DNA of 41,228 nt from positions 1 to 41,228 of the forward strand of contig CAYTRK010000001.1 of NCBI GenBank assembly GCA_964440205.1, in the 5' to 3' direction. Below, piece by piece: positions 10,568 to 40,424 of this stretch. The notes under the pieces were generated by a model. It did not search any database. It was not told the origin of the DNA and was given only the letters and a program-made list of their open reading frames with translations. The translations under genes were made by a program, and so were the position numbers. The stretch's first letter is position 1, and each line of letters begins with the position of its first letter. Origin of the DNA: an uncultured Victivallaceae bacterium (GTDB lineage: Bacteria; Verrucomicrobiota; Kiritimatiellia; UBA8416; CAYSRM01).

Positions 10568-10584
10568 TTCTTAGTTCCTTCTGC

Positions 10585-17386: not shown

Positions 17387-17425
17387 GCCGCTACCATCCT
17401 TCTTTACATTGGGTTCTTAAAGCAG

Positions 17426-17659: not shown

Positions 17660-17722
17660 TGTGTCTCCTCTGGTAAGCGAAGCGCTCCCCGGGGTTCTCC
17701 GGGGAGCGCTTCTGTTTATTGT

Positions 17723-18502: not shown

Positions 18503-18537
18503 TGAAATCTCCTTCAATACTATATTTTGTTCATTAT

Positions 18538-19302
18538 TTAGCGTGAAGCGAGAACTTCGCAGATCTTGTCGCCGTAGGCGATTGAAGATTCAACGGAGGT
18601 TCCTGTAATAAACGGCCAGTCAAACGCCACTTCAGGATCTTCCCGGTTTGCGGTTTCGCGTGCTATGCACTCGCCGTCAGGGCCAACAGCGTCACGTACG
18701 AGGTGTTCGATGGGCCAGAGGAATCCGGGGGTGTGGACATCTGTGCCGTTGTTGTCATCGGTTGCACCATAGAGGTCGTAGGTGAAGTCCCAATCCGGGC
18801 CGTAGAAGTCCCAGGATGCCGGGTGCGCTGCTACCTTTTTGCCGTAGATCAGGGCTTTGCCGTCATCTCTACGGGCAAAGACCAGAGACGTGACTGCATA
18901 ACAAAGAGCGCAGGTCAGCTTGTCCTGTGCGATCGAGTCTTTGAGCAGCTTGTGTACATTGTAATTATTACACATATCTATCATTGCGCCAAGACCGCCT
19001 GTAAGGACTATGGCGTCATAATTCTTCATGTCGGCATCTTTAAACGTAATGGGGTTAGCCCATTCGTCACCGTCCGTGAGCTCTTTAATCCTGTCGCAGA
19101 CCTCGGGTGGATTTACCGCGAAGTTGATAATAGGATCGACGAACTCAGGATCGACACTGACTGCCAGCGGAAGAGGTTTCTTTCCGAGTGGTGTTGCCAG
19201 AGTCACGTTGTGACCTGCCTTGTTGAGCGCGTCCCACGGCGCCTGGAGCTCTTCGCCCCAAGTGCCGTAGTTCGTCGCAAGTACTAGTACTTTCTTACCC
19301 AT
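18538..19302 (-). CDS. DJ-1/PfpI-superfamily protein, copy B (tandem paralog)
   Basis: 254 aa with AAGGAG RBS. It is collinear with copy A over the full length (MGKKVLVLATNYG...LTGGLGAMID...CALCYAVTSL...EVLASR). Confidence 0.87.
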   Translation of the reverse strand: MGKKVLVLATNYGTWGEELQAPWDALNKAGHNVTLATPLGKKPLPLAVSVDPEFVDPIINFAVNPPEVCDRIKELTDGDEWANPITFKDADMKNYDAIVLTGGLGAMIDMCNNYNVHKLLKDSIAQDKLTCALCYAVTSLVFARRDDGKALIYGKKVAAHPASWDFYGPDWDFTYDLYGATDDNNGTDVHTPGFLWPIEHLVRDAVGPDGECIARETANREDPEVAFDWPFITGTSVESSIAYGDKICEVLASR

Positions 19303-25483: not shown

Positions 25484-25497
25484 TGTAAGTCTTTTTC

Positions 25498-26874
25498 TCA
25501 AATCTTATCCTGTCTTTTAAAGTCAATTCTCTTAACCAATAACATCGGAATCTCTTTATGAACAGCATATTGTTGTGCAATCGCTTGAATATTGCGGGCC
25601 AATTCGTCGATATTGTCCTGTGAGTATGTTCTTATGCAGGAATCGAGCTTTTTTCCGGCTTCATTGTCTTCCATGTGGAGAATCACAGTTTTTTCTGCCG
25701 GCTCTGCATCTTCGACATGTATCGACCCGTTCGGGCCGTTGTATTTTACGATTTTGATACTGCCGGTTTCTGCAGAGCATTCGATGCCTGCGATCTTGTC
25801 TATCCTGAAAATTTCCAGGGCTTGTTCAACGGCTTTTTCGATACCATTTATGCTGAGTTTCTGTTTCAGCAGTGCTTCTGCGGCCGATGCCATGATGGCG
25901 GTATCCAGCGGTTTTGTGCCGTGGGAAACAGCTCCAACTATCGCGTATAAGGTGGGGTCATTGTTCGTAATTACGCATATATTTGAAATTTCGTTATCTG
26001 CATGTGCGGTTATACGGATATGGAATGAATCGGTGTCAAGGGCGCGGGTTCTTTTCCTGTTTTGTCTGTAGGCGATTGCCAGATCCTGTTCTGTTCGGAA
26101 CATTTCTACATCCATGAGTTCGCGGCGGGCCCTGACCTCGGTGTCCTTGAATATGCTGGCCGCCGTAAGGAACGTGTTCCAGAGATCATGTATCTCCCGG
26201 ATGCTGCCGGGTGGAGGCATGCTGGTTTTTGTGTCGGAATTGGAGATCGTTTCTACCGACTCGGCGAATGTTCGGATGTTACTTTTGAGCATCTGGCTTA
26301 CGATGAATACGCAAAGCAGGCCCATGCCGAGGGCAACTGCTATACCGCGCGAGATGGTTTTGATTGCCCTGGTTCTGGAAACGGCCAGTGACGATGCGTC
26401 TGTCTTGATCAGAACGTATCCTGCAATATTGTTGTCCGAATCAAGCAGAGGGGAGCAGGAGAATACGACATCGGTGTCTGCGCTATCGCGGGTGATCCTG
26501 GTGATGTTTCCGTCTTGGGCGCGGCATTCTTCAAGCAGAGACTTATCGGGAAGCGGTTTGCCTCTATCTCGGCCTATGTCGAGTATAATCTCCTGCTGAT
26601 CTTTTGTCAGAGCAATTATGCGCAGGGCAGTGCCGTGGCCTGTGACCTTCTTAACCGCGCGGAGCAGGTCGGGTGGGGGCTGCTCGTCGGCTTCAAGGGT
26701 CTGGATGTCTTCGGAAATAAATTCCGTAACCACGACGCAAATGCCCCCTGCTTCCTCCATCAAGCCCCATTTTGTCTCCTTAATTTCCATGATATAGACG
26801 ACAACGGCAGTTGCTGCGGCCAGTACAAGAAATACAGGGAGGATACTGCGGAAACATAGTGTGCGGATATTCAT
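25498..26874 (-). CDS. Membrane sensor protein with degenerate SpoIIE/PP2C-like C-terminal domain
   Basis: 458 aa, with an ATGA overlap with the upstream gene. Two TM helices flank a ~140-aa periplasmic region. The C-terminal region YAIVGAVSHGTKPLDTAIMASAA resembles the GDVSGHG..AA..M motif with Asp replaced, and IKIVKYNGPNGSIHV and IPMLLVKRI occupy the positions of the NAGH and DDITLL motifs. Confidence 0.75.
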   Translation of the reverse strand: MNIRTLCFRSILPVFLVLAAATAVVVYIMEIKETKWGLMEEAGGICVVVTEFISEDIQTLEADEQPPPDLLRAVKKVTGHGTALRIIALTKDQQEIILDIGRDRGKPLPDKSLLEECRAQDGNITRITRDSADTDVVFSCSPLLDSDNNIAGYVLIKTDASSLAVSRTRAIKTISRGIAVALGMGLLCVFIVSQMLKSNIRTFAESVETISNSDTKTSMPPPGSIREIHDLWNTFLTAASIFKDTEVRARRELMDVEMFRTEQDLAIAYRQNRKRTRALDTDSFHIRITAHADNEISNICVITNNDPTLYAIVGAVSHGTKPLDTAIMASAAEALLKQKLSINGIEKAVEQALEIFRIDKIAGIECSAETGSIKIVKYNGPNGSIHVEDAEPAEKTVILHMEDNEAGKKLDSCIRTYSQDNIDELARNIQAIAQQYAVHKEIPMLLVKRIDFKRQDKI

Positions 26875-27281
26875 GCGGAGACGGTTTCCTCTTGTTTGTT
26901 AAGTGTCTCAAGCTGGGGCTCTGCAAGCATATTAAGTATTATGGACGGATGCTGATAGATGATGGTGAAAAATATGCCTCTTTCAAGTATGAGGCAGATT
27001 GCTCCGACCGGCGAAGCAATAATGTCTTCACCAACCTGCATGTCGAGCAGAAGCGATGCCGGACCGAATACCGATGGTGTTCGCCTGTCGGTCCTTGTCT
27101 GAAAAGACCCTTCGATTACGATGTACATGCGGCTTAATTTCTTGCCGGCACTGCAGAACAGTTCGTCCGGTTCGTAGGCTCGTTCTAGGAGTGAATCCGC
27201 TATTCTGGCAATGTCCAGGTCCGAGAGCTCGGAAAAGACGTCAGAACGCTTCAAGGCGAATATCTTTTCTATTATGTTCAC
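26871..27281 (-). CDS. Stand-alone cyclic-nucleotide-binding-like (CNB/CAP-fold) domain protein
   Basis: 136 aa with GTG start and 4-nt overlaps at both ends. CNB-like pattern SDVFSELSDLDIARIADSLLERAYEPDELFCSAGKKLSRMYIVIEGSF...FGPASLL...AICLILERGIF. The phosphate-binding-cassette Glu/Arg are not evident. Confidence 0.65.
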   Translation of the reverse strand: MNIIEKIFALKRSDVFSELSDLDIARIADSLLERAYEPDELFCSAGKKLSRMYIVIEGSFQTRTDRRTPSVFGPASLLLDMQVGEDIIASPVGAICLILERGIFFTIIYQHPSIILNMLAEPQLETLNKQEETVSA

Positions 27282-29419
27282 GGCGCCGCCTTTCTGTTTC
27301 TAAATACACCTATGAATATTTGTCTTCCATCTCTGTTGGTCAGTTCCTTCAGAATAACGCTTATCAGCTCGAATGCCTTTGGCGGATCTGCTTGGTTTTG
27401 CTTCATCAAGAGCATGTTTTTGACCTCATCGCTGATGGTTTCGAGATTGTCCGAAATGATGATCCACTCGATGTCTGTGTTGAGGGGGGTGTGGCCATTG
27501 TTGAGTTGGGTCTCTTCGATTTTGCCGGCTTTAATGGTGAGTGCCGGAACAGGGGTGTCGGTTCGGCAGAATATACCTTTCTCTGAATACGTTACAGTTG
27601 TCTTCAGCGCGGGGTCCGCGGGGTGATCCAGGCCGCCGGATATCATCGCGCATGTTTCACATCTTTTGCCGATCGCATCGATCGCGTTTTCGTGATGATC
27701 TTTCGCGAGCCATGCTACGGTGCGGTCTCCGTTGCTTGCGTATCCTGATGATGTCCGGTGGTCGGAGCTGTCCGTCCATCCGAAAGCCCAATTTTCGCAT
27801 GACTCTTGTGAGCATTGCTGTGTTGATCTGTCGAGCGCTGACAACAGATCATTGTTCATCCTGCGGGCGCCTATGTCGCTGTTGGTGGTTCTGAGGTTAT
27901 GGACGGTCTCCTCCAGTTTCCGGCCGAGTCCATTGAAAGCCGACGAGAGACGTTGCAATTCCGACGGCGTTGTTATTTCGACCTTGTGGCTGTAAACTCC
28001 GGCGGCGATCATGAGCGCGGAGTTTCGCAAGGCTGTAATGGGTTTTATCAGTTTGGCGGAGAACTGTATCGATATGTAACCGGCGCCCAGAGCGGCGCCC
28101 AGAGCGAGCATGCCGAGCGTAAAAAGAGCGAGACGGGTCTTGTTGTTTACAACCGTAATGTTTATGTCTGCGCCAGTCATGGCGGTGATGCTGTCGTCGA
28201 TGTTATAGATAGGCGCGTAAGACACCTTCAGGAGGCCCCATTGGTCGGTGGCTGTTATGTCTCCTATATGTATAACGCCGTAAAGAAGAACACGTTGGGC
28301 GCCGTCGTAGTCCTCGCTGGCGAGTGTGTCTTCGTCACCGATCATGCTTTCCTGGGTGGCGTCGAGAACATAAACGCAGTTTGGTTTTTCCTGAAGAACC
28401 TGGGTATAGAGGTAGGTTAGTCCGGTTCTGTCGAGTATCCTCTTCATCGTCCTGACGTATTTTCTGTACACAGGCGACTGCATATCGTGTGACTTGTATA
28501 TGGCGGCATGCTCTTCGCCCTTAATGAAGCATCCCGTAGAACCGCTCAGGCCAGCAAGTTTCCTGTTAAAGCCGTCAATGATGATATTGTGCAATTGGTT
28601 GTAGAAAATAAAGCCCCAGAACAAAGTCACGACAAGCAGGGCAGGAACGACCAGCAAGAGAACAAAAGTCTGCAGTTTTACGGCGGTACTGTGTGCTGCC
28701 ATGATGTCGTCGCCGTGCGCAGCAGAGAGCAGTTGTATCTGTCGGGCCACAGCGTGGCCTATGAGCCACGACATAATGATTCCGACAAGAGCAATGGCCG
28801 CAGAGACCTGGCTGAGTCGAATTTTCCATGTCCTGATCTCTGCGCGTACATCTTCAATGTACATCCCGGTTCCGATAATCCAGCCCCATGGTCTGAAAAG
28901 TCTTACATAACTTATTTTCGGCACGATACGCGTGGCATCGTCCTGCCATTGCCAGGAGTATTGCACGAAGCCGGCACCGTCTTGGCGGCATACGTTCACG
29001 GCTTCAACGAAAAGGGCTGTACCGTTGGGGTCCCTGAATTTTACAAGATCACTGCCGTCCATTTCCGGCTTATAGGGATGCATAATCATTCTGGGCTGCA
29101 TATCGTTAATCCAGAAGTAATCTTTCATCTCCGGGCCGTAGCGTATGTGTTTGATGAGATTCGCAGCCTGCCGCCTGGCTTCCTGTAGAGGCATGATGCC
29201 TTGTTCTGCCAGAGAATTATGGTGGTTCAATATGCTCCATGCCGTTTCAGTTGCTTCGCGCAGTTTCTCGCGTTTTTTGTTGATAAGAGCTTTTTCGGCA
29301 GTAGGAATGATGACCAGAAAATTAGTAAGTACGAAAAGGGATGTTATGATCAGGCCGCCGATAATGACCTTGGTTGATACCCTGAGGCGTTTCAATATGG
29401 TTTTACCTGCCTGGCTCAT
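27278..29419 (-). CDS. Four-TM double-sensor protein: sCache_2-like domain + second Cache-like domain + HAMP + degenerate PP2C-like C-terminus
   Basis: 713 aa with an ATGA overlap with the upstream gene. sCache_2 signature IRYGPEMKDYFWINDMQPRMIMHPYKPEMDGSDL...GAGFVQYSWQW...WGWIIGTGMYIEDV. The second extracytoplasmic domain (GLTYLYTQV...WGLLKVSYAPI...GADINI) resembles the sensor of the 23900 phosphatase. HAMP-like LIKPITALRNSALMIAAG. The C-terminus has no intact PP2C Asp motifs. Confidence 0.85.
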   Translation of the reverse strand: MSQAGKTILKRLRVSTKVIIGGLIITSLFVLTNFLVIIPTAEKALINKKREKLREATETAWSILNHHNSLAEQGIMPLQEARRQAANLIKHIRYGPEMKDYFWINDMQPRMIMHPYKPEMDGSDLVKFRDPNGTALFVEAVNVCRQDGAGFVQYSWQWQDDATRIVPKISYVRLFRPWGWIIGTGMYIEDVRAEIRTWKIRLSQVSAAIALVGIIMSWLIGHAVARQIQLLSAAHGDDIMAAHSTAVKLQTFVLLLVVPALLVVTLFWGFIFYNQLHNIIIDGFNRKLAGLSGSTGCFIKGEEHAAIYKSHDMQSPVYRKYVRTMKRILDRTGLTYLYTQVLQEKPNCVYVLDATQESMIGDEDTLASEDYDGAQRVLLYGVIHIGDITATDQWGLLKVSYAPIYNIDDSITAMTGADINITVVNNKTRLALFTLGMLALGAALGAGYISIQFSAKLIKPITALRNSALMIAAGVYSHKVEITTPSELQRLSSAFNGLGRKLEETVHNLRTTNSDIGARRMNNDLLSALDRSTQQCSQESCENWAFGWTDSSDHRTSSGYASNGDRTVAWLAKDHHENAIDAIGKRCETCAMISGGLDHPADPALKTTVTYSEKGIFCRTDTPVPALTIKAGKIEETQLNNGHTPLNTDIEWIIISDNLETISDEVKNMLLMKQNQADPPKAFELISVILKELTNRDGRQIFIGVFRNRKAAP

Positions 29420-32400
29420 GCGGGATCCTGCTTATTTCGTGTATTATGCGTGTATGAGAACATTTGTACGACGATTTCCGGGTAAATTCTTGCAGTTTGC
29501 AGAATGCTGTTGCGGGGTATTGCGAGCAGTACAGCGTCTTTTCCGACAGCCTGACTTGTATAGCAATCAAGGCCCCGAAGCAGCTCATCGCCGGCGAGTT
29601 CGTGACAGGATCTTGATATGCCCGTGCCGTTTTTACCGATGCATTCTACGTTGCCTTCCAGAATGACGTAAAGTGTTTCTGCAGGATCCCCCTTGTTGTA
29701 GAGGGCGCCGTTGGGGGCAGAGATTACTTCGGAAGTATTGATTAAAGTTTCAAGCTGGGTAACGCGTATATCGCGGAAGAACTTTGCCTTTGTCAGGCAG
29801 TAAGCTTTTTCCATGGGGTTGAGCTGCAGGCTGTCTTTGTCTTGCGGTGAAGTCTCGTTCAGCAGAGCGAATATTGCTTCGGAGATCATCATGTCGGCAT
29901 TACCGATATTATGCTTCATTATTTCTCTCAACGCGGCACGGCAGATGGGGTCATCAGGTTGGTAGTTCAGTCGCCATGCGGCTTGCAATGCAGAGGCTTG
30001 TTCAACAGGAATTCTGCTTGAGCAGCTTTTCAGCAGGACGTCGGATACGGAAAGGGGTTTATAATCGAAGTTATCCCTGTAGAAGGTAATTGTATCGCTC
30101 ACGGGCCGTGCATCAAGCAAGGGCAGAAGCATTCCAAACGTTTTTCTACTGCATCCCTGTTCAATTGTCTCTATGGCATTTGCCCGCTCCTTCGCATTGC
30201 GTGATCGCAGGAATACTGCGAGCATCTCAAAGTCGGGAAGCCGGCCTGCAATGGTTAGTGTTTTCAGCACGAAATCGATTATAGCTGACTGAGTATCCCT
30301 GTATACGCGCGCGAGAAATTCCAGCGCGGGTATTGATGTTGAATGCCCGGAGATTATCCAATGTGCGTTAATGTATTGATATGCCTTTTCTATCGCATCG
30401 AAAATAAGCTCGTCAGCCACTGCTTCGAACTGCGGGAATGAAAGAATGCCGAGTGTCTGGGTCGCAACTGATTTGTTGGCGAAAGTGACGTCCGGGTCTC
30501 TGAGTATTGAGATAAGTGAGGGGACGCTGCTCAGTCCCGTTTTTAGAACGATCTCCTCCACACGTTTTTTCTCGGGAGGGGTAAACCCGGATGTCATGTT
30601 GATAAGAGGCCTGATGCAGGATGGGTTTGCTATGGCTTCCAGGGCATCAAAACCGCGGTCTCGCAGTCTGCCGTCATCGCGGCTGACAAAATCAATGATT
30701 GGCGGCACAAGGCGTTCGGATGACGGGCCGACCAGCATGGATATTGATTTTATGGCCTGCTCCCGTACGGACTGTGAATCGTATGTCAGAAATTCGGCAA
30801 GGAAGTGTGCGTATTTGGTATTGCCGGAGGATTCTACAATTTGCATGGCCGCGATTTTCTCGCTGTCGGCCCCCGTCATAAAATCACTTGCCACCTGCAT
30901 GGATGTGAGGCCCTCTGTCGGTTTCCAGCTTCGCCACCTGGCGATAGCGGCAGCAGTCTGATGTGCGATCGCGGGGTCTTCTGAGAGTGTTTGTATTTCC
31001 TGTTGGCTTAACATGTTGTATCGTGCGCATATTTCGAGCAGGCGGGAAGATACCTGCATGCGTTTATCGTTCAGCCATTGCAGCACCTTTCTGCGTCGTA
31101 TGCTGTTATCATTCTGAAGAACGATTTCAAATAAGTCTACTGCCGATTCGGGTGGATCCATGCTGTGAGCGGACATAAAATCAAGAAACATGTCGAGCGC
31201 TTTATTTTTGTCGTTGAGCCAATAGATGGCTATGGCCGACACGGCATGAGCCGGGTTCGGCGAGCGTGTTTCTTTTTCTAACGAATCCAATTCTTTGTTG
31301 TCCAGCATGGCCAGGCGGTTTCGCTCAGAGCGGGAGAAATTAAGCCATGTTTTCTTAAGGCTGTAGAGCATGGATGTGAGGTAATGGGCTCTCAGTCCGA
31401 ATATGGAACACAGTGCGATAGCCGTACCCGCAAGTCCTATCAGCGACAACGTTTGTGCGCTGAGTCTGGGGGCTAACATAACCAGAAAGAGTCCTGCTGA
31501 TGCTGTCGCCAGCGGTTCGCATAATCCCTCGATGAATGTACGGACCTGCGCCTTATCTCTGGCTGGTATGGCATTGAATAGAAAGTTCTGGTTATTGTAC
31601 TCCACGGATGTCAGTACGCCCTGATAGGCGAAAAAGCCGGCAACCGCCGCGCCGAAACCGTAGTCCAGCAGAAAGTAGCTGAAGGTAACGGCATAGACCA
31701 CAGGCTGTATCAGCGTAACATTTCTTACTCCCATAAATGCCACAAGCCGGTTGAAGACAAAAAGGTTGATGAGAATATTAAGTCCGTTCACGCCGGTATA
31801 GAGCTTGCCGAAAAGTGAGGCTACTTCAGCTTCGGTCCGGTTCTGTTCGAAGATCTGCATATACTGGAACTCGCAGAGAGTGGTAATCATCAGTGTTGTC
31901 AGGAATGCCAGGATCATGAAGTTAGTATAACGTGATTCGCGGAGAATGGCGTACAGGCGAGAGATCTGCTCGCGAAAAGACGGTAGTTCTTTTGTTGTAA
32001 GGGCCTCTTCTTCGCTTATCTTATGCCAGTGTTTCCTGAGGCGGAAGACCACTGGAAATGCCGCAAGCACCAGGGCTGACCACACCAGAAACAGGTGCTG
32101 AACATTTACAAACTGAATGAGTGTTACAACAATGCTGCCGCCTATCATTGTGCCGAACGCCATTCCTGCGCTCATGAAGCTGAACAGCCTTTTTGCGTCT
32201 AGTATGTGGAAATAGCAGTCTATAAAGTTCCATAGCAGTGTATAGAGAGCTATGTACCACAGTGTTGTGTAAAGCTTGGCCACATAGTACAACAGTGCGG
32301 GGGGCGCATCGCAGCCCGGTATAAGCCCCGGCGATAGAAGTATGTAGAGGGCTGCGCCTCCGGCTATAAGTGTGCACATGGTGATGTATAGCAGTCGGTC

Positions 32401-32637
32401 TATACCGAGCCTGTTGGTCAGGTACGCGAAAGCCGGTATGTAGATCAGCATGATGAACGGGGTGGCCATATAGATGAAGGGAAGTTTGTCTGCGCCGACA
32501 TGGATCAGGAACAGTGCGTCGGCACAGCTTATGCCTACCGCGAGCCCTGCCTGCAGTATTGCGGCAAGAAGGGCGAAGCTGAGAACTTTTTTCCCTTCGC
32601 CCGGATGTATTTTTAAAAGTTGCTGCAGCTTTTCCAA
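29416..32637 (-). CDS. 1073-aa fusion: TLC/ATP:ADP-antiporter-like polytopic transporter + HEAT repeats + C-terminal CNB-like domain
   Basis: The N-terminal ~440 aa have ~12 TM helices, with a start typical of TLC-like carriers (LLKIHPGEGKKVLSFALLAAILQAGLAVGISCADALFL). The middle has HEAT-like repeats (DSQSVREQAIKSISMLVG..., SRDDGRLRDRGFDALEAIANPSCIRPL, RSRNAKERANAIETIEQG). The C-terminus reads FFRDIRVTQLETLI...GDPAETLYVILEGNVECIG...LAGDELL...AVLLAIPRNSI. Confidence 0.85.
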   Translation of the reverse strand: MEKLQQLLKIHPGEGKKVLSFALLAAILQAGLAVGISCADALFLIHVGADKLPFIYMATPFIMLIYIPAFAYLTNRLGIDRLLYITMCTLIAGGAALYILLSPGLIPGCDAPPALLYYVAKLYTTLWYIALYTLLWNFIDCYFHILDAKRLFSFMSAGMAFGTMIGGSIVVTLIQFVNVQHLFLVWSALVLAAFPVVFRLRKHWHKISEEEALTTKELPSFREQISRLYAILRESRYTNFMILAFLTTLMITTLCEFQYMQIFEQNRTEAEVASLFGKLYTGVNGLNILINLFVFNRLVAFMGVRNVTLIQPVVYAVTFSYFLLDYGFGAAVAGFFAYQGVLTSVEYNNQNFLFNAIPARDKAQVRTFIEGLCEPLATASAGLFLVMLAPRLSAQTLSLIGLAGTAIALCSIFGLRAHYLTSMLYSLKKTWLNFSRSERNRLAMLDNKELDSLEKETRSPNPAHAVSAIAIYWLNDKNKALDMFLDFMSAHSMDPPESAVDLFEIVLQNDNSIRRRKVLQWLNDKRMQVSSRLLEICARYNMLSQQEIQTLSEDPAIAHQTAAAIARWRSWKPTEGLTSMQVASDFMTGADSEKIAAMQIVESSGNTKYAHFLAEFLTYDSQSVREQAIKSISMLVGPSSERLVPPIIDFVSRDDGRLRDRGFDALEAIANPSCIRPLINMTSGFTPPEKKRVEEIVLKTGLSSVPSLISILRDPDVTFANKSVATQTLGILSFPQFEAVADELIFDAIEKAYQYINAHWIISGHSTSIPALEFLARVYRDTQSAIIDFVLKTLTIAGRLPDFEMLAVFLRSRNAKERANAIETIEQGCSRKTFGMLLPLLDARPVSDTITFYRDNFDYKPLSVSDVLLKSCSSRIPVEQASALQAAWRLNYQPDDPICRAALREIMKHNIGNADMMISEAIFALLNETSPQDKDSLQLNPMEKAYCLTKAKFFRDIRVTQLETLINTSEVISAPNGALYNKGDPAETLYVILEGNVECIGKNGTGISRSCHELAGDELLRGLDCYTSQAVGKDAVLLAIPRNSILQTARIYPEIVVQMFSYTHNTRNKQDPA

Positions 32638-32639
32638 CG

Positions 32640-33329
32640 TCAGTCTCTTGATTTTGAAAGCGAGAACACGTGGCTGATATGTTCATGTTCCTCGTCTCTG
32701 AATCCCGGGTGCGGCGGTTCCCGCCACGTGTAAACTGTGTTTGCATCAATGTTGAATCCCTCGTCCCGGAGAATCTCTGATATCTCATTCTCTTCCCAGA
32801 ACCGGTAAAGGTATTGCTCTTTGTAAAGAAAGGTCATGTCGGAAAAGGGGGTCATGTTCTTGCCGGCAATTCCGTCATTCCCGCCGGGGATGTTGCATAT
32901 CATTCTTCCGCCGGCCGCGAGGATCCGGTATATTTCCTGCAATGCAGGACGGGGATTCTCGAAAGTTTCGAAGACATCACAGAGAAGGACGAGATCAAAC
33001 GAACCTGATCGATAAGGCATGCGGATCAAGCTGCATTGAGCGCAGAAGACCTTCTCCCTGACTTCGGGAGAAATTTTATTAAGCGCGTTAATGGAGGAGT
33101 CGCAGGCGTGCAGAGTCGCATTGGTGTTGAGCAGTAGTTTCAGGTGTCGCCCTTCGCCTGTGCCTGCGTCCAGCACGCGCGATTGTGCATTAGGGATGCC
33201 TTTGAGCCGATCCAGTTCGGGTTGCAGAAAGGGAACCGGTACATTGCCCCAGATTTTTTTAATGCTTGTGCTGTATAGCGCGTTCCATGCATTGATGGAG
33301 ACGTCGTTTATGTTTTTGCTGCTTTTCAT
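32640..33329 (-). CDS. Class I SAM-dependent methyltransferase
   Basis: 229 aa with motif I RVLDAGTGEGRHL. Post-I/II motifs LHACDSS and FDLVLLCDVFE, then LAAGGRMI. Confidence 0.88.
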   Translation of the reverse strand: MKSSKNINDVSINAWNALYSTSIKKIWGNVPVPFLQPELDRLKGIPNAQSRVLDAGTGEGRHLKLLLNTNATLHACDSSINALNKISPEVREKVFCAQCSLIRMPYRSGSFDLVLLCDVFETFENPRPALQEIYRILAAGGRMICNIPGGNDGIAGKNMTPFSDMTFLYKEQYLYRFWEENEISEILRDEGFNIDANTVYTWREPPHPGFRDEEHEHISHVFSLSKSRD

Positions 33330-33345
33330 AAAATCTGCTTCCTTT

Positions 33346-34542
33346 TCAGGGAACCATTTTTTCCAGGAAAGATCCTCTGCAGCAATGGTTGGAACTCATC
33401 GAACTTCCATAGCCGCCCGCGTTTAGCAAGGCGAGATAATCACCCTCTTTGACAGGTGAAAGCAAGATATTCCTGCCGAAAACATCAAGTGCTTCGTTGA
33501 TATTGCCTGCTATTGTTACTCTTTGCTTTGAGCCGGGACGCGGCCGGCAGGGCACAACATGCAGGGGAAGGTTGTAGAAGGCGGGTTCGATATGTATATT
33601 AAAACCTGCGTTTACGCCCACAAAAAGCGTATCTTGTCGCTGTTCTACGGTGTTTATCTGTACGATAAGGATTCCTGCGTCTTTGACAATGTAGTCGCCG
33701 GGTTCCACCCATAAGTTGACTTCTCTGCGCTGTAAATGTTTCTCCATAAGGGAGGACCATGCTTCAAGGTCCAGCGGTTTATCATTTTGGCTGAGTGGAA
33801 CGCCGAGGCCGCCGCCTATGTTCAAGTGATCAACATCGGGGAACATGTTGATGAAAGAAAGCAGTCCCTGCAGTATGCTCTCCATATTGTCAAGGTCGCC
33901 GTTCAGATAGCCGCAGCCGCAGTGAAAATGAATGCCTGATATTTTAAGCCCGTGATTTTCGGCCAGATCACGTGCTTCCTCAATACGGTCGTAATATATG
34001 CCGAATTTAGTCGTATTGCCGCCCGAATATCTCAGGAGTTTGTTCTGTTGATAACCAAGGCCGATGTCCGGGTTGATTCTGATTCCGATGGAACGGGGGC
34101 CGCCGATGGCGGCAAATCTGCGCATCATGCTCAGGGAATCGCAGTTCACGTATATATCCGGCTTGCCGGAAAGGAAGCGAAGATCGGCATCGGAAAGGGA
34201 TGTTCCCGTATAAGATATATCCTGTTCCTTAAACCCGCAGGCCAGCGCCAGCTTGACTTCGCCGGGCGAGCAGGCATCAATACCGCATAGATCCGTATGC
34301 TTTATAAGGTCCAGGACTTTTTCAAAGCGATTGGCTTTCATGGCATAAAACAGCCTGAAATCAAGGGTACGCTTCTTTAATGCTTTTGTGAGTCTTTCAA
34401 TATTTTCCTGGATGCGCTTTCTGCTATATAAATAGAGTGGTATTCCGGCCTGTGCAGCGAGTTCATCAGGTCGTATTCCGTCGAAAAACAGTCCATGTTC
34501 GTCGAGGCCTAATTCAGGCTTTTGCCACCATTGATTGTTCAT
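33346..34542 (-). CDS. PLP-dependent group IV decarboxylase (Orn/DAP/Arg decarboxylase fold; LysA/NspC-like, substrate unknown)
   Basis: 398 aa. PLP-Lys motif RLFYAMKANRFEKV, then HLNIGGGLGVP, WVEPGDYIVKDAG and NAGGYGSSMSSNHCCRG. Confidence 0.9.
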   Translation of the reverse strand: MNNQWWQKPELGLDEHGLFFDGIRPDELAAQAGIPLYLYSRKRIQENIERLTKALKKRTLDFRLFYAMKANRFEKVLDLIKHTDLCGIDACSPGEVKLALACGFKEQDISYTGTSLSDADLRFLSGKPDIYVNCDSLSMMRRFAAIGGPRSIGIRINPDIGLGYQQNKLLRYSGGNTTKFGIYYDRIEEARDLAENHGLKISGIHFHCGCGYLNGDLDNMESILQGLLSFINMFPDVDHLNIGGGLGVPLSQNDKPLDLEAWSSLMEKHLQRREVNLWVEPGDYIVKDAGILIVQINTVEQRQDTLFVGVNAGFNIHIEPAFYNLPLHVVPCRPRPGSKQRVTIAGNINEALDVFGRNILLSPVKEGDYLALLNAGGYGSSMSSNHCCRGSFLEKMVP

Positions 34543-34680
34543 GTTTAATTAAATCAGAGAAACTCAAGCAACTTTGCTTGACCTTTTGATCACCTATTGA
34601 TATTTCCTAGTGGCTACATATGTTATTCTCTGCAAGGGATGATCTCACAGTGAAAACCATAAATCAAGGGAGATAGTAGA

Positions 34681-36501
34681 ATGAAAACTGGTTTCTCGAT
34701 TTCAGACACAATTGCCGGTTATGTTGCGTCCTCTGATCCTAAGAGCAGAAAGTTCAAGCTGAAGACAAGTGACGATCGGGAATTCGAGGTGCTTATTACT
34801 GATGCGACGTATGCCTACATGGTCATGAACTTTGGCGACGACTGGAAGGACTGCATGGGGGACATTGCTGACCGGCTTGTCGCGGGCGCTTTTATTTTTG
34901 TGCATGGTTTCTTTTATCCCGATGCTGATGGAGAGTTTGAAGCCAAGTGGCTGGTATTTAATGGTGACAATCCTGGGGGCTACCGTCATATGGAGCAGGA
35001 TTGGTGGATCAGGCAGATCAGCGCCATTGCTTCAAAATACATCGAGTGGCAGTTCGACTATCCGGAGAAAGATATTGATTACAACAATTACAGGACAAAG
35101 CTGCATGTCAACGGCCAGAAATTAGGTGACGGCATTCAGGAGGTTGACACGATCTCCAGGATGACATACGGCATGGCCTCGGCCTACATGCTGACAGGTG
35201 ATGAGAAATTCCTTGAAGCAGCGGAGAAGGGAACCAATTACCTGCGTGATCATGCGCGCTGTACAGACAAGGAAGACATTGTTTACTGGCTGCATGCTGT
35301 CGAGAAGAAAGAGGACGGTAGTGAGGAGAAGATGCTGTGTTCTCTCTTTGGCGATGACTACGGGACCATACCGGTATATGAACAGATATACGCGCTTGCA
35401 GGACCGATTCAAACGTACCGCTTGACGGGCGATCCGCAGATTCTTGATGACGCCGACAAGACCATTGCGTTGTTTGACAACTACTGCAAGGACAAAGAGA
35501 AGGGCGGCTACTGGTCGCATATCGATCCGGAGACATTCAGTTGCACGGCGGAGAAGCTGGACGAGACTAATAACCGCGCCAGGAAGAACTGGAACTCGGT
35601 GGGCGACCACGCTCCGGCTTATCTTATCAACCTCTGGCTTGCCACGGGTGATGATAAATATGCGGATTTTCTTGAATACACTTTCGATACGATCGAAAAA
35701 CACTTTCCGGATTATGATGAGAGCCCGTTTGTACAGGAGAAATTCTTTGATGACTGGAGTAAAGACCAGACATGGGGCTGGCAGCAGAACAGAGCGGTTG
35801 TCGGGCACAATCTGAAAATTGCCTGGAACCTTATGCGAATGAATAGTCTCAGGGCTAAGGATTCGTATGTTGCTCTTGCCCGGAAGATCGCTGACCTGAT
35901 GCCTGATGCAGGCTGTGACAGACAGAGGGGCGGTTGTTATGACGTGGTGAGTCGCACTCTTGAAAAGGGACAGAAGCAATATCGCTTCACGTGGCACGAC
36001 AGGAAGGCCTGGTGGCAGCAGGAACAGATGATACTTGCCTACCTTATCCTTTACGGCATTCTTGGTGACGATGAGTACGGTAAGCACGCTGTTGAATCGG
36101 CGGCTTTCTATAATGCCTTCTTTCTTGACCTGGCAGATGGCGGAGTTTACTTCAACGTTTTGGCAAACGGACTTCCGTATCTTTGCGGAACGGAGCGACA
36201 CAAGGGCAGTCATTCCATGAGCGCATATCATTCCACGGAACTCTGCTTCCTGGCGGCTGTTTACACAAACCTTCTCATTACAAAGAAGCCGATGGATTTT
36301 TATTTCGCGCCGAAGTCGAACGGATTTAAGGATGGGATACTGCGGGTGTCTCCGGACATACTTCCTGCCGGCAGTATTAAGATTACGAGCGTGGAGATAG
36401 ACGGTAATGCGTATGATGATTACGATGCAGAGGGGCTGACCGTTAAGCTTCCGGAGACGGAGTCAAATCTCCGCGTCAAGGTTACTGTCTCTCCCGTGTA
36501 A
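34681..36501 (+). CDS. AGE-superfamily (N-acylglucosamine 2-epimerase-like, alpha/alpha-6 barrel) protein with extra N- and C-terminal domains
   Basis: 606-aa ORF. KAWWQQEQMILAYLILYGILGDDEYGKHAVESAAFYNAFFLDLADGGVYF and VGHNLKIAWNLMRM resemble AGE-family helix-pair motifs. The family call comes from pattern recognition only. Confidence 0.6.
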   Translation: MKTGFSISDTIAGYVASSDPKSRKFKLKTSDDREFEVLITDATYAYMVMNFGDDWKDCMGDIADRLVAGAFIFVHGFFYPDADGEFEAKWLVFNGDNPGGYRHMEQDWWIRQISAIASKYIEWQFDYPEKDIDYNNYRTKLHVNGQKLGDGIQEVDTISRMTYGMASAYMLTGDEKFLEAAEKGTNYLRDHARCTDKEDIVYWLHAVEKKEDGSEEKMLCSLFGDDYGTIPVYEQIYALAGPIQTYRLTGDPQILDDADKTIALFDNYCKDKEKGGYWSHIDPETFSCTAEKLDETNNRARKNWNSVGDHAPAYLINLWLATGDDKYADFLEYTFDTIEKHFPDYDESPFVQEKFFDDWSKDQTWGWQQNRAVVGHNLKIAWNLMRMNSLRAKDSYVALARKIADLMPDAGCDRQRGGCYDVVSRTLEKGQKQYRFTWHDRKAWWQQEQMILAYLILYGILGDDEYGKHAVESAAFYNAFFLDLADGGVYFNVLANGLPYLCGTERHKGSHSMSAYHSTELCFLAAVYTNLLITKKPMDFYFAPKSNGFKDGILRVSPDILPAGSIKITSVEIDGNAYDDYDAEGLTVKLPETESNLRVKVTVSPV

Positions 36502-36554
36502 GGAATAATGCAACAGACTTCTTCTCCGAAACGGCGGAAGAATGAAAGGAAATT

Positions 36555-36890
36555 ATGAAAATAGAAAACAGAGAGAAGGATGGCATTGCGATCGTATCTA
36601 TATCGGGCGAAATAGACAGCAAGACGGCTCCAGATGCGCAGGAAAAGCTTCTGCCCCTGGTGGATCAGTATCACTCGATGATTATGGATCTTAACGATCT
36701 CACTTTCATGTCCAGCGCCGGCCTGAGGATTATGCTTCTGCTGTACAGACATGCTACCGCCCAGAGCGGGAAAGTGGCTCTCGTCGGTTTGTCCGAGCAG
36801 ATACAGGATACGATGTCGGCTACCGGGTTTCTGAGTTTCTTTGATTTATCAGACAGCATTGACGAAGCTATGGACGCTGTTAAAGAATGA
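36555..36890 (+). CDS. STAS-domain anti-sigma-factor antagonist (RsbV/SpoIIAA-like)
   Basis: 111 aa. IAIVSISGEIDSKTAPDAQEKL...MIMDLNDLTFMSSAGLRIMLLLY carries the conserved phosphorylatable-Ser context, then KVALVGLSEQIQDTMSATGF. Confidence 0.9.
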   Translation: MKIENREKDGIAIVSISGEIDSKTAPDAQEKLLPLVDQYHSMIMDLNDLTFMSSAGLRIMLLLYRHATAQSGKVALVGLSEQIQDTMSATGFLSFFDLSDSIDEAMDAVKE

Positions 36891-36900
36891 GGAATATTCT

Positions 36901-39021
36901 GTGGACACACGTATAGATTTTTATCCTACTCACGAACACGACGGGTTTAAATTGCGGTTGGGGAAGCCGTATCCTTTTGGGGCCACTCTGGTTCCGAACG
37001 GTGTTAATTTTTCTATCTTCTCAAGGAATGCTACGTCATGTACACTTGTTCTTTTCGAGAAACATGCTGACAAGCCGTTAGTGGAAATTCCTTTCAGGGA
37101 GTCGTTTCGCATAGGCAACGTTTACTGCATGGTAGTGTTCGGCCTGGATTGCGAGGACATCGAATACGGGTATCGCATGGAAGGTTCTGACGACCCAGAC
37201 AAGGGCCATCGTTTTGATCCCGGCAAGATTCTGCTTGATCCCTATGCTAAGGCTATAGGTGGGCGTGATGAATGGGGGCAGCAGCCCGACTGGGATAATG
37301 TGTTTCCGCATCGCGGTCGGCTTGTGTTTGAAGATTTCGATTGGGAGGATGACAGGGCTCTCGAGATACCCAACGAGGATCTGATCATATATGAGACGCA
37401 TGTACGCAGTTTTACCCGGCATGACAGTTCCGGGGTCAAGCATCCCGGCACATACGCCGGCATTATGGAAAAGATACCTTATCTCAAAGAACTGGGCATA
37501 AATTGTCTTGAGCTGATGCCTGTTTTTGAATTTGATGAATTTGAGAACAGCAAGGAAAACCCTGTTACCGGCGAGACCAATTACAACTATTGGGGGTACA
37601 GTACGGTAGGTTTCTTTGCTCCTAAGGCCGGGTATGCCGCCACGGGCATGTTAGGTATGCAGGTCGATGAATTGAAGAACATGGTCAAGCAGCTGCATAA
37701 GAACGGCATCGAGGTGATGCTTGATGTGGTGTTTAATCATACAGCTGAAGGTAATGAGAAGGGGCCGACGATTTCTTTCAGGGGCATAGACAATAGCACG
37801 TACTACATGTTGACGCCCGAGGGTTACTATTTCAATTTCAGTGGATGCGGGAATACGCTGAACTGTAACAACCCGATTGTCAGGAATATGGTTCTGGATT
37901 GCCTGCGCTACTGGGCATCCGAGTACCACATTGACGGGTTTCGTTTTGATCTTGCCGCGATACTGGGGCGGGATCCCTGGGGCGCGCCTCTGCCCAATCC
38001 GCCCTTGCTTGAGACGCTGGCTTTTGATCCGGTTCTTGGGAAGTGTAAGCTGGTGGCCGAAGCATGGGATGCTGGTGGATTGAACCAGGTGGGGAGGTTC
38101 CCCTCGTACGGCCGCTGGGCAGAGTGGAATGGCGAGTTCAGGGATGACCTGCGCCGTTTCCTGAGGGGTGAAGAAGGGTTGGTAGGAAGGCTGGCTCAGC
38201 GTGTACAGGGATCTCCTGACATGTATCGCCAGGCCAACAGGGGGCCGACGGCTTCTATAAATTTTGTTACATGCCATGACGGATTCACTCTCTATGACTG
38301 TGTTTCCTACGATGGCAAGCACAACGAGGCAAACGGTGAGGATGGTCGCGATGGTAGTGACGACAACCTGAGTTGGAACTGTGGCGTTGAGGGCGAGACA
38401 GAGGATACTGCCGTTAAGGATCTTCGTAAACGCCAGATCAAGAATGCTGTAACAATGCTGATGGTCAGCCACGGGGTGCCCCTGATATTGATGGGGGATG
38501 AGGTGGGCAGGACACAATACGGCAATAACAATACTTACTGCCATGACAACGAGCTTAACTGGCTTGACTGGGGGCTTGTGGAGAAGAACGGCGAGCTGCT
38601 CGATTATTTCAAGAAAATGATCATGTTCAGGCGAGCGCACCCGGTGCTTCGTCCGGCGGAGCATCCCCGGAACTGTGATTATGTCGGCAGTGGGCTGCCG
38701 GACATTTCGTGGCATGGTGTGCAGGCGTGGAATGCTGACTGGGCGGGGTGTTGCCGCGTGCTCGCGTTTATGATGGACGGCAAGCATGCCAAGAGCGGAT
38801 CGATTGAGGACAATACAGTGTACGTTGCTGTCAACGGTTACTGGGATTGTCTGCCGTTTGAACTGCCTGGCGCCCCGCATGGCAAGCAATGGTACAACTT
38901 TGCAAATACTTCCCTGCCCTCACCTGATGATATTTGTGAGGTGGGCAATGAAATCAAACTGGACAGCCAGAAGGAATACCTCGTCGGAGGCCGTTCGGTT
39001 GTTGTGCTTATAGCAAAATAG
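36901..39021 (+). CDS. glgX: Glycogen debranching enzyme (GH13 isoamylase-type)
   Basis: GH13 regions GIEVMLDVVFNHTAEG, IDGFRFDLAAILGR, LVAEAWD and INFVTCHDGFTLYD, plus the N-terminal CBM48-like GATLVPNGVNFSIFSRNATSCTLVLF. There is no in-frame ATG. I chose GTG 36901 (GAGGA 7 nt upstream); the track uses TTG 36841, which would overlap the STAS gene by 50 nt. Confidence 0.93.
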   Translation: MDTRIDFYPTHEHDGFKLRLGKPYPFGATLVPNGVNFSIFSRNATSCTLVLFEKHADKPLVEIPFRESFRIGNVYCMVVFGLDCEDIEYGYRMEGSDDPDKGHRFDPGKILLDPYAKAIGGRDEWGQQPDWDNVFPHRGRLVFEDFDWEDDRALEIPNEDLIIYETHVRSFTRHDSSGVKHPGTYAGIMEKIPYLKELGINCLELMPVFEFDEFENSKENPVTGETNYNYWGYSTVGFFAPKAGYAATGMLGMQVDELKNMVKQLHKNGIEVMLDVVFNHTAEGNEKGPTISFRGIDNSTYYMLTPEGYYFNFSGCGNTLNCNNPIVRNMVLDCLRYWASEYHIDGFRFDLAAILGRDPWGAPLPNPPLLETLAFDPVLGKCKLVAEAWDAGGLNQVGRFPSYGRWAEWNGEFRDDLRRFLRGEEGLVGRLAQRVQGSPDMYRQANRGPTASINFVTCHDGFTLYDCVSYDGKHNEANGEDGRDGSDDNLSWNCGVEGETEDTAVKDLRKRQIKNAVTMLMVSHGVPLILMGDEVGRTQYGNNNTYCHDNELNWLDWGLVEKNGELLDYFKKMIMFRRAHPVLRPAEHPRNCDYVGSGLPDISWHGVQAWNADWAGCCRVLAFMMDGKHAKSGSIEDNTVYVAVNGYWDCLPFELPGAPHGKQWYNFANTSLPSPDDICEVGNEIKLDSQKEYLVGGRSVVVLIAK

Positions 39022-39029
39022 AGGTCTCT

Positions 39030-39449
39030 ATGAAGACGCAGACTTTTCCCGGGGTGCTTGATTCACTGACGCCCGTTCGAGACTTTGTCAAAGCTTCGGC
39101 GCTTGAGGCCGGACTTTCGGAACCGTCTGTCTACAAGTTGATTCTTGCGGTCGACGAGCTGGTCACCAACTCAATTAAGTACGGTTATGCCGACAACAAC
39201 ATCAGCGGTGATATTGTGGTGGCCGTTGACTGCGATGGTGATGAATTTGTGGTAACTCTGGAAGACACGGCTCCGCCTTTTGATCCGCGCGAGAGCTCTC
39301 TTCCGACAAAGGACGATATGGCAGCGCCCCTTGATGAGCGTGACATCGGAGGGCTTGGAATATTTCTGGCCATGAGCGAGGTCGACCGTTTTGATTACCG
39401 CAGAACCGGGACCTCTAATGTTAGTGAACTCGCGATGCAGATCGAATAA
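39030..39449 (+). CDS. RsbW/SpoIIAB-like anti-sigma-type serine protein kinase (HATPase_c_2)
   Basis: 139 aa, 8 nt after the glgX stop. N-box DELVTNSIKYGY, G-box-like DIGGLGIFLAMSEVD, and the size typical of this family. Confidence 0.85.
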   Translation: MKTQTFPGVLDSLTPVRDFVKASALEAGLSEPSVYKLILAVDELVTNSIKYGYADNNISGDIVVAVDCDGDEFVVTLEDTAPPFDPRESSLPTKDDMAAPLDERDIGGLGIFLAMSEVDRFDYRRTGTSNVSELAMQIE

Positions 39450-39468
39450 CAAAAAAGGAGAATGAGTG

Positions 39469-40035
39469 ATGCCTGCAGATGCTAAGAAGGTGGGTATATT
39501 GATTGAGTCTGATTTCTATGAACCCGAAATATGGTACTATGAACGGCGCTTTGCGGAAGAGGGCATGGATGTTCATTTTATGACCAGACTGTGGGGCTGT
39601 GAATCGATCACATTTACGGGGCATGAACATCGGGCGCCCTTTGAATGCGGGGAGTCTTTTGAGGACATCAGCGACGGAGACCTCGATGAATACTCGGCGA
39701 TAATAGTGCCTGCCGGAATGGTGTCCGATCGGCTTCGCTATACTGAAGATGTCAATAAAGTTCCGCCTGCTACAGAGTTTCTTGCAAAGGCATTTGCAAA
39801 TAAAAACATAATCAAGGGGGTTATATGTCACGGGATGTGGCTCGTTGCTCCGCTGCCCGAGCTGGTTAAAGGCCGGCGCGTTACCGTGCACAATAATCTG
39901 CTCGGTGATGCAAAGGCGTATGGCGCCGAGTATGTGGACGAAGATGTAGTTGTGGATGGTGACCTTGTGACGGCTAGGACGGGCGGGGACTGCCATATGT
40001 TTGCGAGGAAGATAATAGAACTGGTGTCAAAATAA
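39469..40035 (+). CDS. DJ-1/PfpI family protein
   Basis: ATG 39469 with AAGGAG 8 nt upstream (the track uses GTG 39466). Nucleophile elbow GVICHGMWLVAP, and SAIIVPAGM. Confidence 0.88.
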   Translation: MPADAKKVGILIESDFYEPEIWYYERRFAEEGMDVHFMTRLWGCESITFTGHEHRAPFECGESFEDISDGDLDEYSAIIVPAGMVSDRLRYTEDVNKVPPATEFLAKAFANKNIIKGVICHGMWLVAPLPELVKGRRVTVHNNLLGDAKAYGAEYVDEDVVVDGDLVTARTGGDCHMFARKIIELVSK

Positions 40036-40055
40036 ATTTTAGAAGGAGAGAAGTC

Positions 40056-40424
40056 ATGGCTGTAAAAGCGAAAAAGGCGGACGGAAAGCTGAAGAAGAAA
40101 ACAGTTGCAAAACCTAAAAAGAAAACAGATGCAGGTTCTAAGAAAAAGGCAGATGGCAAGAAAGACAACGGGAAGGCTGTGACTTTCAGTGTGATTGCCG
40201 ATAAGGGCTCAAGTGTCTACGTTGCCGGCACCTTCAACGGATGGAATGAGGAAGTCGACAAGCTTTCTTACGGAAACGGCAAGTATTCCGTCAGACTGTG
40301 TCTTGAGCCGGGGCGTCACGAGTACAAGTTTATCATTGACGGAGCCTGGCACGCCGATCCGGAATGTCATGAATGGTCTCACAACGATCTGGGGTCAGTA
40401 AATAGCGTAATCTTTGTTGATTGA
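40056..40424 (+). CDS. Lys-rich tail + CBM48/AMPK-beta-type glycogen-binding module
   Basis: 122 aa with GAAGGAGAG RBS. Residues 1-40 are ~40% Lys (KAKKADGKLKKKTVAKPKKKTDAGSKKKADGKK). They are followed by VTFSVIADKGSSVYVAGTFNGWNE...GRHEYKFIIDGAWHADPE. Confidence 0.8.
   Translation: MAVKAKKADGKLKKKTVAKPKKKTDAGSKKKADGKKDNGKAVTFSVIADKGSSVYVAGTFNGWNEEVDKLSYGNGKYSVRLCLEPGRHEYKFIIDGAWHADPECHEWSHNDLGSVNSVIFVD

Follow-up and report, generated by a model that had tools for sequence, protein, structure and literature searches.

In the cyanobacterium Synechocystis, the icfG cluster interleaves the genes of a partner switch with that of an isoamylase: slr1856 and slr1859 encode two antagonists, slr1857 the isoamylase, slr1860 the PP2C phosphatase IcfG and slr1861 a kinase (PMC12329169), and the slr1852-1862 operon also holds Slr1855, described as an 'N-acetylglucosamine 2-epimerase' (PMC8670252). 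The reported substrates of the kinase Slr1861 are Slr1856, Slr1859 and the further protein Ssr1600, and it is also reported to control formation of the holoenzyme between RNA polymerase and SigC; sigC itself is not among the icfG cluster genes listed in the Synechocystis papers. According to a preprint, recombinant GlgX2 (Slr1857) alone showed no debranching in vitro, and a knockout of it was without phenotype. The pullulan-active enzymes of a PLoS One 2016 study include slr0237 and not slr1857, on which that study says nothing explicit, so that it is evidence neither way. Here, we analyse six genes at the end of contig CAYTRK010000001.1, the whole of which (41,228 bases) is referred to below as the window, and find that they are very probably a variant of the icfG-type cluster from the Planctomycetes-Verrucomicrobia-Chlamydiae (PVC) group, one that has lost the second of the two STAS genes (STAS2, the Slr1859 type) found in nearly all other copies.

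Other described systems resemble this locus in part. The RsbU/RsbV/RsbW-sigmaB and SpoIIE/SpoIIAA/SpoIIAB-sigmaF switches of Bacillus subtilis likewise consist of a PP2C phosphatase, a STAS protein phosphorylated on serine and a small HATPase_c_2 kinase, and they provide the best solved relatives of the window proteins (RsbW and RsbV in PDB entry 6M36, and SpoIIAA/AB). They differ in that the window operon has no sigma gene, that a 2.1-kb enzyme gene separates its STAS and kinase genes, and that its kinase and STAS protein score under the RsbW and SpoIIAA equivalog cut-offs, respectively. The SiaABCD switch of Pseudomonas and the SypE/SypA switch of Vibrio fischeri work without a sigma factor. 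In both, a STAS-like phosphoprotein output governs polysaccharide or biofilm enzymes, as set out for Syp in PMC10120452; the window differs in having no diguanylate cyclase or Syp-type target, and although SiaA is the best named NCBIfam relative of the window PP2C, the match (NF038263, 69.7 against 700 bits) is far below the cut-off. The GlgX of Streptomyces is reported to bind cyclic di-GMP (PMC9530166), a precedent for direct control of GlgX by a signalling input, the regulator there being a nucleotide and not a STAS/kinase pair. Finally, Chlamydia trachomatis has a partner switch of the PVC superphylum (RsbU, RsbV1/V2, RsbW) with metabolic inputs, and its RsbW is reported (summarised in PMC11619594) to form a complex with the housekeeping sigma-66. 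The Chlamydia genes have no glgX or AGE-like linkage, and there are two antagonists against one in the window.

The six genes are co-oriented on the plus strand, and their contents and coordinates (Table 1), taken from the list of open reading frames (ORFs) and from Pfam, are those given in a preliminary description of this DNA. A recount reproduced its gaps of 53, 10, 8, 19 and 20 nt between the AGE-like, STAS, GlgX, kinase, DJ-1/PfpI and CBM48 genes, and a Shine-Dalgarno-like motif precedes every one of them. Two starts call for correction. The 10-nt gap between the STAS gene and glgX implies a GTG start at 36901, not an ATG; a GAGGA Shine-Dalgarno sequence lies 7 nt upstream of it, and a second organism (locus L088) carries the identical 706-aa gene call. 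The 19-nt gap between the kinase and PfpI genes presumes the ATG at 39469, the ORF itself opening at GTG 39466. The preliminary description thus had the gene content right; it missed both the icfG precedent and the near-universal second STAS gene. As in Synechocystis, the gene families are those of the icfG cluster, the order is AGE-like, STAS, isoamylase and then kinase, and no sigma gene is included. In cyanobacterial loci that share this arrangement the kinases are 39-47% identical to that of the window, and the N-terminus of the window GlgX, (M)DTRIDF, resembles the MERIDI encoded by a published slr1857 primer. The window differs from Synechocystis in lacking an Slr1859-type STAS protein, in having a non-adjacent PP2C that ends a divergent seven-gene operon, and in the DJ-1/PfpI and Lys-rich CBM48 genes that follow the kinase.

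The same gene order is widespread. A scan with a kinase alignment, using one genome per species, yielded 496 relatives, the best 80 of which were mapped as loci by tblastn; 69 of these 80, each with at least 5 kb of upstream DNA, were informative for gene order. The closest kinase homologues are all glgX-linked, and homologues on long contigs all lie within the same cluster, with genes for DJ-1/PfpI, ThiJ-like and thiamine pyrophosphate (TPP)-dependent proteins nearby. GlgX is encoded directly upstream of the kinase in 62 of the 69 loci, and 61 also have the AGE-like gene. The common order, seen in at least 11 phyla, is AGE-like (~605 aa), STAS1, GlgX, STAS2 and kinase, usually followed by a PP2C; the phosphatase gene is inside the locus in 68 of the 80, with sensor domains that vary (dCache-HAMP, REC or none). 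Among the best 80 are Gamma-, Beta- and Alphaproteobacteria (Contendobacter/Competibacter, Thiodiazotropha, Accumulibacter and Rhodoblastus), Bacteroidota (Hymenobacter, Dyadobacter), Chloroflexota, Acidobacteriota, Cyanobacteria, Deinococcota, Armatimonadota, Nitrospirota, Gemmatimonadota, Schekmanbacteria and KSB3. Conservation is much stronger in the enzymes than in the regulators, with identities to the window proteins of 62-72% for GlgX across phyla and 56-65% for the AGE-like protein (compared with the product of the gene directly upstream of STAS1 in the 61 loci), against 39-54% for the kinase. The possibility that the STAS-glgX-kinase order is peculiar to this genome, which would have undercut the link proposed in the preliminary description between the switch and the glucan genes, can thus be set aside, and the functional link holds, from the conserved order. 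The linkage is ancient or widely transferred. Our literature searches turned up no earlier report of the conservation of this cluster in many non-photosynthetic phyla. In three loci (L004 6528-6986, L005 400-858 and L087 6477-6935) a gene for a 152-aa dual-specificity phosphatase (DSPc) lies between the AGE-like and STAS1 genes; its product may be a glucan phosphatase like laforin or SEX4, which would be a further tie to glucan chemistry.

What sets the window apart is the space between glgX and the kinase gene. This is 8 nt here and 345-1047 nt (median 427) elsewhere, where it holds STAS2 in 67 of 69 loci in which GlgX abuts the kinase. A hidden Markov model (HMM) of STAS2, run against all frames of the 41 kb, found no match besides the STAS1 gene itself. 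In L088, a Logan assembly, STAS is followed after 10 nt by GlgX and after a further 8 nt by the kinase, PfpI and CBM48, and then by LtrA on the opposite strand. This identical layout in a second organism indicates that we are dealing with a real lineage variant and not with an assembly error. The variant is marked by the loss of STAS2, the move of the PP2C to the divergent Cache/HAMP sensor operon and the addition of the CBM48 gene. Judged by homologues of a PhoH-like protein and of the CBM48 protein, this lineage belongs to Verrucomicrobiota or Kiritimatiellia, within the PVC group. A look-up of the exact kinase sequence, made in search of a longer contig, gave no match, and the homologue search found no relative of the window kinase above 51% identity, the L088 kinase (66%) having been found by way of the CBM48 protein. 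A further locus (L091, PhoH 91% identical) was considered as a guide to the flanks of the cluster and set aside, its synteny ending at the Mut7-C gene, beyond which it diverges.

The switch proteins themselves appear complete. The window STAS protein has a single STAS domain (PF01740, 78.9 bits against a cut-off of 22.6) and passes TIGR00377 (88.9 against 53.45), short of the SpoIIAA equivalog score (TIGR02886, 54.9 against 114.75). On HMMs built for the two types it scores 154 bits for STAS1 and 64.5 bits for STAS2, and is clearly of the STAS1 type. The preliminary description had noted a phosphorylatable serine in the STAS protein and N- and G-boxes in the kinase, and alignment bears both out. 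The motif [YF][ML]SSAGL is found in 34 of 35 STAS1 orthologues, and Ser54 of the window protein (TFMSSAGL) aligns with the serine of RsbV 'YMDSTGL' in 6M36, which makes it the predicted phospho-acceptor. The kinase matches HATPase_c_2 with 80.3 bits against a cut-off of 27.4, and the best PDB match of its profile is RsbW in 6M36 (5e-13). It retains the N-box (E43, N47) and the G-boxes (D79, G107-G110); over 28 aligned sequences, the window kinase and 27 homologues, N47, D79 and G107-G110 are invariant and E43 is present in at least 90%. Between the window and L088 the ratio of nonsynonymous to synonymous substitution rates (dN/dS) is 0.18 for the kinase, 0.07 for STAS1 and 0.025 for GlgX, dS being near saturation. 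With all catalytic residues kept, these low ratios indicate that the STAS1/kinase pair is under purifying selection and not decaying. The kinase is the fastest-evolving gene of the operon: between window and L088 it is 66% identical and GlgX 90-92%, and no other pair of loci with a comparable GlgX identity has so low a value for the kinase. This fast divergence may mean re-tuning after the loss of STAS2.

Three further observations concern the STAS protein. Its closest solved relative is PDB entry 4HYL (E = 1.8e-26), deposited as 'Stage II sporulation protein', which shares the YMSSAGLR motif; it may be the product of an icfG-type cluster and is a possible modelling template. The closest STAS relatives in the sequence library include tandem-STAS proteins of 227, 563 and 882 aa (P0208, P0210 and P0342) with two or three STAS stretches, and the top match (E = 1.8e-39) is a two-STAS protein. 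Many sub-threshold matches of the STAS protein to TAL-effector repeats were dismissed as noise.

The candidate phosphatase of the switch is 9 kb away from the cluster on the opposite strand. In 22 loci there are PP2Cs to which it is 40-55% identical, the majority of them inside the cluster or next to it, and in one (L009) the match runs over the full length and begins 55 nt past the kinase. This likeness to cluster PP2Cs supports its pairing with the switch, and the pairing put forward in the preliminary description is accordingly plausible. L006 likewise has no adjacent PP2C.

Next comes the sigma factor. Pfam scans of all long plausible ORFs showed no sigma-70-family protein in the 41 kb, in agreement with the preliminary description, and RpoD, SigF and RpoE probes run against all frames of the window at E<=10 gave no match. 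Two of the three probes (RpoD and SigF) were validated against Pfam, and sigma factors of the extracytoplasmic function (ECF) type found in other loci served as positive control. When ~10 kb around the kinase was searched in 87 loci, a sigma-like ORF was found in two only (L021 and L026), both of the ECF type. L088 extends ~5 kb beyond the point corresponding to the window's end and has none there. Since sigma genes are absent near the cluster almost everywhere, their absence from the window is no evidence for a target other than a sigma factor. The step taken in the preliminary description, from a window without a sigma gene to an enzyme as the target of the kinase, therefore fails: absence is the rule, and the icfG kinase is reported to act on SigC, whose gene is not listed in the cluster. 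In L021, a metagenome-assembled genome (MAG) of Accumulibacter, the ECF-type ORF (10380-11027, +) overlaps the kinase stop, and five other Accumulibacter loci have unrelated genes at this position. A seemingly recurrent gene downstream of the kinase (family 18) was also considered; it is not sigma-like.

With gene content, motifs, the conserved order of the genes, their purifying selection and the missing sigma linkage established, the working of the switch can be proposed as follows. The kinase would phosphorylate STAS1 on Ser54, and the HAMP-PP2C of the divergent Cache/HAMP sensor operon would remove this phosphate. Unphosphorylated STAS1 would then capture the kinase and so free its other partner, which would be a sigma-70-family factor whose gene lies elsewhere in the genome. 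Together, the AGE-like protein, GlgX2, PfpI and the CBM48 protein would form a co-expressed alpha-glucan-processing arm, coordinated with transcription by the switch. By analogy with Slr1861 (SigC) and Chlamydia RsbW (sigma-66), an unlinked sigma-70-family factor is the most likely output of the kinase, although we put this forward tentatively; for the statement as a whole, icfG variant, switch and unlinked sigma target together, we see the balance as even.

Several points weigh against a sigma output. The assignment of SigC is based on the holoenzyme content measured in vivo and on an AlphaFold model, and its authors word it as 'most probably'. The STAS protein concerned is Ssr1600, the gene for which has no anti-sigma factor gene beside it, and the Synechocystis papers state that what Slr1856 and Slr1859, the antagonists encoded in the cluster, act on is unknown. 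Our own connection between window and Synechocystis is indirect, through published descriptions and the cyanobacterial loci L051, L054, L061, L069, L081 and L084. The window kinase misses the RsbW equivalog cut-offs (NF003144, 30.2 against 145 bits; TIGR01924, 28.7 against 155 bits). SigC is a cyanobacterial group-2 sigma factor and the cluster is also present in Bacteroidota, Chloroflexota, Acidobacteriota and other groups, so that a sigma target common to all would have to be primary-like. Lastly, a purely transcriptional output does not account for a glgX lodged between regulator genes.

The last point leads to a different proposal, that the switch is sigma-independent and that STAS1, with or without its phosphate, or the kinase binds and gates the GlgX2-type isoamylase or the AGE-like protein, the PP2C and sensor inputs thereby controlling alpha-glucan processing post-translationally. 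We judge this possible, though on balance unlikely. What argues most strongly for direct physical contact is the deeply conserved position of glgX between regulator genes: the interleaving of STAS1, GlgX, STAS2 and kinase with the AGE-like gene upstream and short gaps, in at least 11 phyla, is a pattern typical of genes whose products interact physically. For a cluster that spreads among phyla with different sets of sigma factors, carrying its own target along would be the simplest way to work. The reported inactivity of Slr1857 alone, although the window orthologue keeps its GH13 motifs, fits an activating partner or another substrate, and no function is assigned to the in-cluster STAS proteins in the Synechocystis papers. 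Sigma-independent STAS outputs are discussed in PMC11619594, the best named relative of the PP2C is SiaA, albeit far below cut-off, and the Streptomyces enzyme (PMC9530166) provides the precedent of a directly controlled GlgX. Against this, neither a STAS-GlgX nor a kinase-GlgX contact has direct support, the best 150 of 11,071 STAS relatives (from 1.84 billion representatives searched) include no STAS-GlgX or STAS-AGE fusion, and the sole experimental output reported for this kinase family is a sigma factor. The window lineage has in addition lost STAS2 while its GlgX is still 90-92% identical to that of L088, and so STAS2, at least, is dispensable for GlgX2 function in this lineage. In its general form the proposal is that the icfG-type cluster is a self-contained, horizontally mobile and sigma-independent module in which phosphorylation-dependent binding of STAS or kinase switches GlgX2 or the AGE-like enzyme, which we regard as doubtful. 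If true, it would explain why glgX2 is locked among regulators in at least 12 phyla, why GlgX2 is inactive alone and why no sigma gene travels along, and the PVC variant would be the minimal, one-STAS form of the module.

Two other explanations carry less weight. The switch could act on some other unlinked target that is not a sigma factor, such as a diguanylate cyclase or a transporter, the neighbouring genes being only co-regulated. In Sinorhizobium meliloti, a phosphorylated antagonist promotes mixed-linkage beta-glucan synthesis through a diguanylate cyclase (cited in PMC11619594), and both the input genes and the neighbours of the core vary among loci; nothing specific points to such a target, though, and besides the enzymes listed no candidate is conserved with the cluster, and we consider the idea improbable. 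It is more improbable still that the STAS1/kinase pair is a decaying remnant which, after STAS2 was lost and the PP2C unlinked, no longer regulates anything and persists only as a passenger of the enzyme genes. Such decay could explain why STAS2 is missing here and present in 67 of 69 other loci, and why the kinase has diverged fastest (66% against 90-92% for GlgX, relative to L088). Yet two organisms carry intact STAS1 and kinase genes, the kinase retains all residues that its family keeps invariant or nearly so, STAS1 retains the SSAGL phospho-site, dN/dS is low for both (0.18 for the kinase and 0.07 for STAS1, with dS near saturation), and at a distance of 9 kb there is still a gene for a PP2C closely related to those of other clusters.

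Turning to the enzymes, the GlgX protein passes TIGR02100 (glgX_debranch) with 697.6 against a cut-off of 640.9; its best PDB match is plant ISA1 (1.8e-196), followed by TreX and GlgX, and it matches the sequence of the Streptomyces GlgX structure 7u39 well (5.2e-153). Its translation contains the motifs DVVFNHT, GFRFDLA, AEAWD and FVTCHD. These GH13 regions I-IV carry the catalytic Asp/Glu/Asp. For the AGE-like protein, the relatives in PDB are all remote (best 8bry, 2e-8), and it is far under the NCBIfam epimerase cut-offs. PfpI orthologues of at least 50% identity are present in 39 of the 80 loci, and the PfpI gene comes immediately after the kinase in L006, L078 and L088. The small CBM48 protein has no match in any of the 80 scanned loci, and in L088 its gene is at the same position as in the window. 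A relative of 94 aa with an AMPK-beta-type CBM is encoded in a Kiritimatiellae MAG (L089 5597-14447; L090) between the genes for a glycogen debranching enzyme (GDE) and GlgP-GlgA-GlgB; the debranching enzyme of that operon is of the eukaryote type (1432 aa, GDE_N/GDE_C). With no match in the 80 loci and a relative inside a Kiritimatiellae glycogen operon, the CBM48 protein appears to be a lineage-specific, glycogen-associated addition to the operon.

Table 1. Features of the icfG-type locus, of the divergent operon and of associated genes in the window
Feature	Position	Strand	Support
AGE-like (alpha/alpha)6-barrel protein, 606 aa, Slr1855 position	34681..36501	+	Pfam GlcNAc_2-epim 2.3e-16
STAS1-type anti-sigma-antagonist-like protein, 111 aa, Slr1856 position	36555..36890	+	Pfam STAS 2.8e-22
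GlgX2-type isoamylase (GH13), 706 aa	36901..39021 (ORF opens TTG 36841)	+	CBM_48 + Alpha-amylase + Isoamylase_C
RsbW-like Ser kinase / putative anti-sigma factor, 139 aa, Slr1861 position	39030..39449	+	HATPase_c_2 1.6e-22
DJ-1/PfpI-family protein, 188-189 aa	39466/39469..40035	+	DJ-1_PfpI 6.6e-22
Lys-rich N-terminal tail + AMPK-beta-type CBM48, 122 aa	40056..40424	+	AMPK1_CBM/CBM_48 6.2e-16
HAMP-PP2C (SpoIIE-type), candidate STAS1-P phosphatase	23900..25501	-	Pfam SpoIIE 2.2e-50 + HAMP
Other six divergent-operon genes, possible input side	25498..34542	-	Pfam
AT-rich region, putative divergent promoter, 138 bp	34543..34680	.	GC 35.5%, consensus scan
TPP-dependent enzyme	15731-17386	-	Pfam
Two ThiJ-like proteins	17723-18517, 18538-19302	-	Pfam

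The seven genes of the divergent operon are separated by gaps of 16, 2, -4, -4, -4 and -4 nt, with the HAMP-SpoIIE PP2C gene last. The other six products are an ornithine/diaminopimelate decarboxylase-like protein, a methyltransferase, a fusion of major facilitator superfamily (MFS), HEAT and cyclic-nucleotide-binding domains, a Cache-HAMP sensor and two unassigned proteins; apart from weak MFS-like matches, these six genes are not conserved with the cluster in other loci. This sensor/PP2C operon and the 138-bp AT-rich spacer that divides it from the cluster are as the preliminary description had them, the spacer having a guanine-cytosine content of 35.5% against 50.0% for the window. A consensus scan placed a promoter-like site in the spacer at 34597-34624 (+). 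At 34564-34581 the spacer also contains a perfect palindrome with 8-bp arms, TCAAGCAA-CT-TTGCTTGA, which could be an operator for a dimeric regulator of both operons.

The fusion protein (29416-32637, -) has 1073 aa and joins an MFS/TLC-like membrane domain to HEAT repeats and a cyclic-nucleotide-binding domain; a 136-aa protein (26871-27281, -) gives a further, weak match to cyclic-nucleotide binding. Four Chloroflexota loci have weak homologues of the MFS part downstream of their clusters, and L087 has a weak match over the full length. Pfam scans of the window ORFs showed no GGDEF protein. Further away, the window encodes two FGE-sulfatase-domain proteins and a 662-aa protein with four Lcl_C (DUF1566) repeats (9542-12186, - and 13707-15695, -); in L006 the AGE-like gene is directly preceded by an FGE-sulfatase-like gene, and L028 has another one near the cluster.

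Genes homologous to those for the TPP-dependent enzyme and the ThiJ-like proteins of the window flank the cluster in L001, L003, L006, L010-L014, L028, L032 and L076, with up to 67-68% identity. A wider set of genes travels with the cluster across phyla, comprising those for a TPP enzyme and for ThiJ-like, DJ-1/PfpI, GMC-oxidoreductase-like, SnoaL-like, glyoxalase and ParA/CbiA-like ATPase proteins, and the TPP and ThiJ-like genes of the window (15731-19302) belong to it. This set resembles one for handling reactive carbonyls or glycation, coupled to glucan breakdown.

For the finding from which this analysis started, the value of these results is mainly corrective: the arrangement has a precedent, and the missing sigma gene is uninformative. 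The host of the window is a non-photosynthetic bacterium of the PVC group, and the inorganic-carbon and SigC role is therefore not simply transferable to it. That the cluster is conserved in many non-photosynthetic phyla may prove more interesting than the copy found in the window. The icfG cluster has so far been read as a cyanobacterial regulator of inorganic carbon and glucose; among its hosts are Accumulibacter and Competibacter/Contendobacter, which cycle glycogen in wastewater, and also Bacteroidota, Chloroflexota, Acidobacteriota and the PVC lineage described here. The same interleaved order in heterotrophs of many phyla suggests that the core job of the cluster is the general handling of alpha-glucan or carbon stores, and the natural variant without STAS2 is a useful minimal system in which to study the roles of the in-cluster STAS protein and of the apparently inactive GlgX2.

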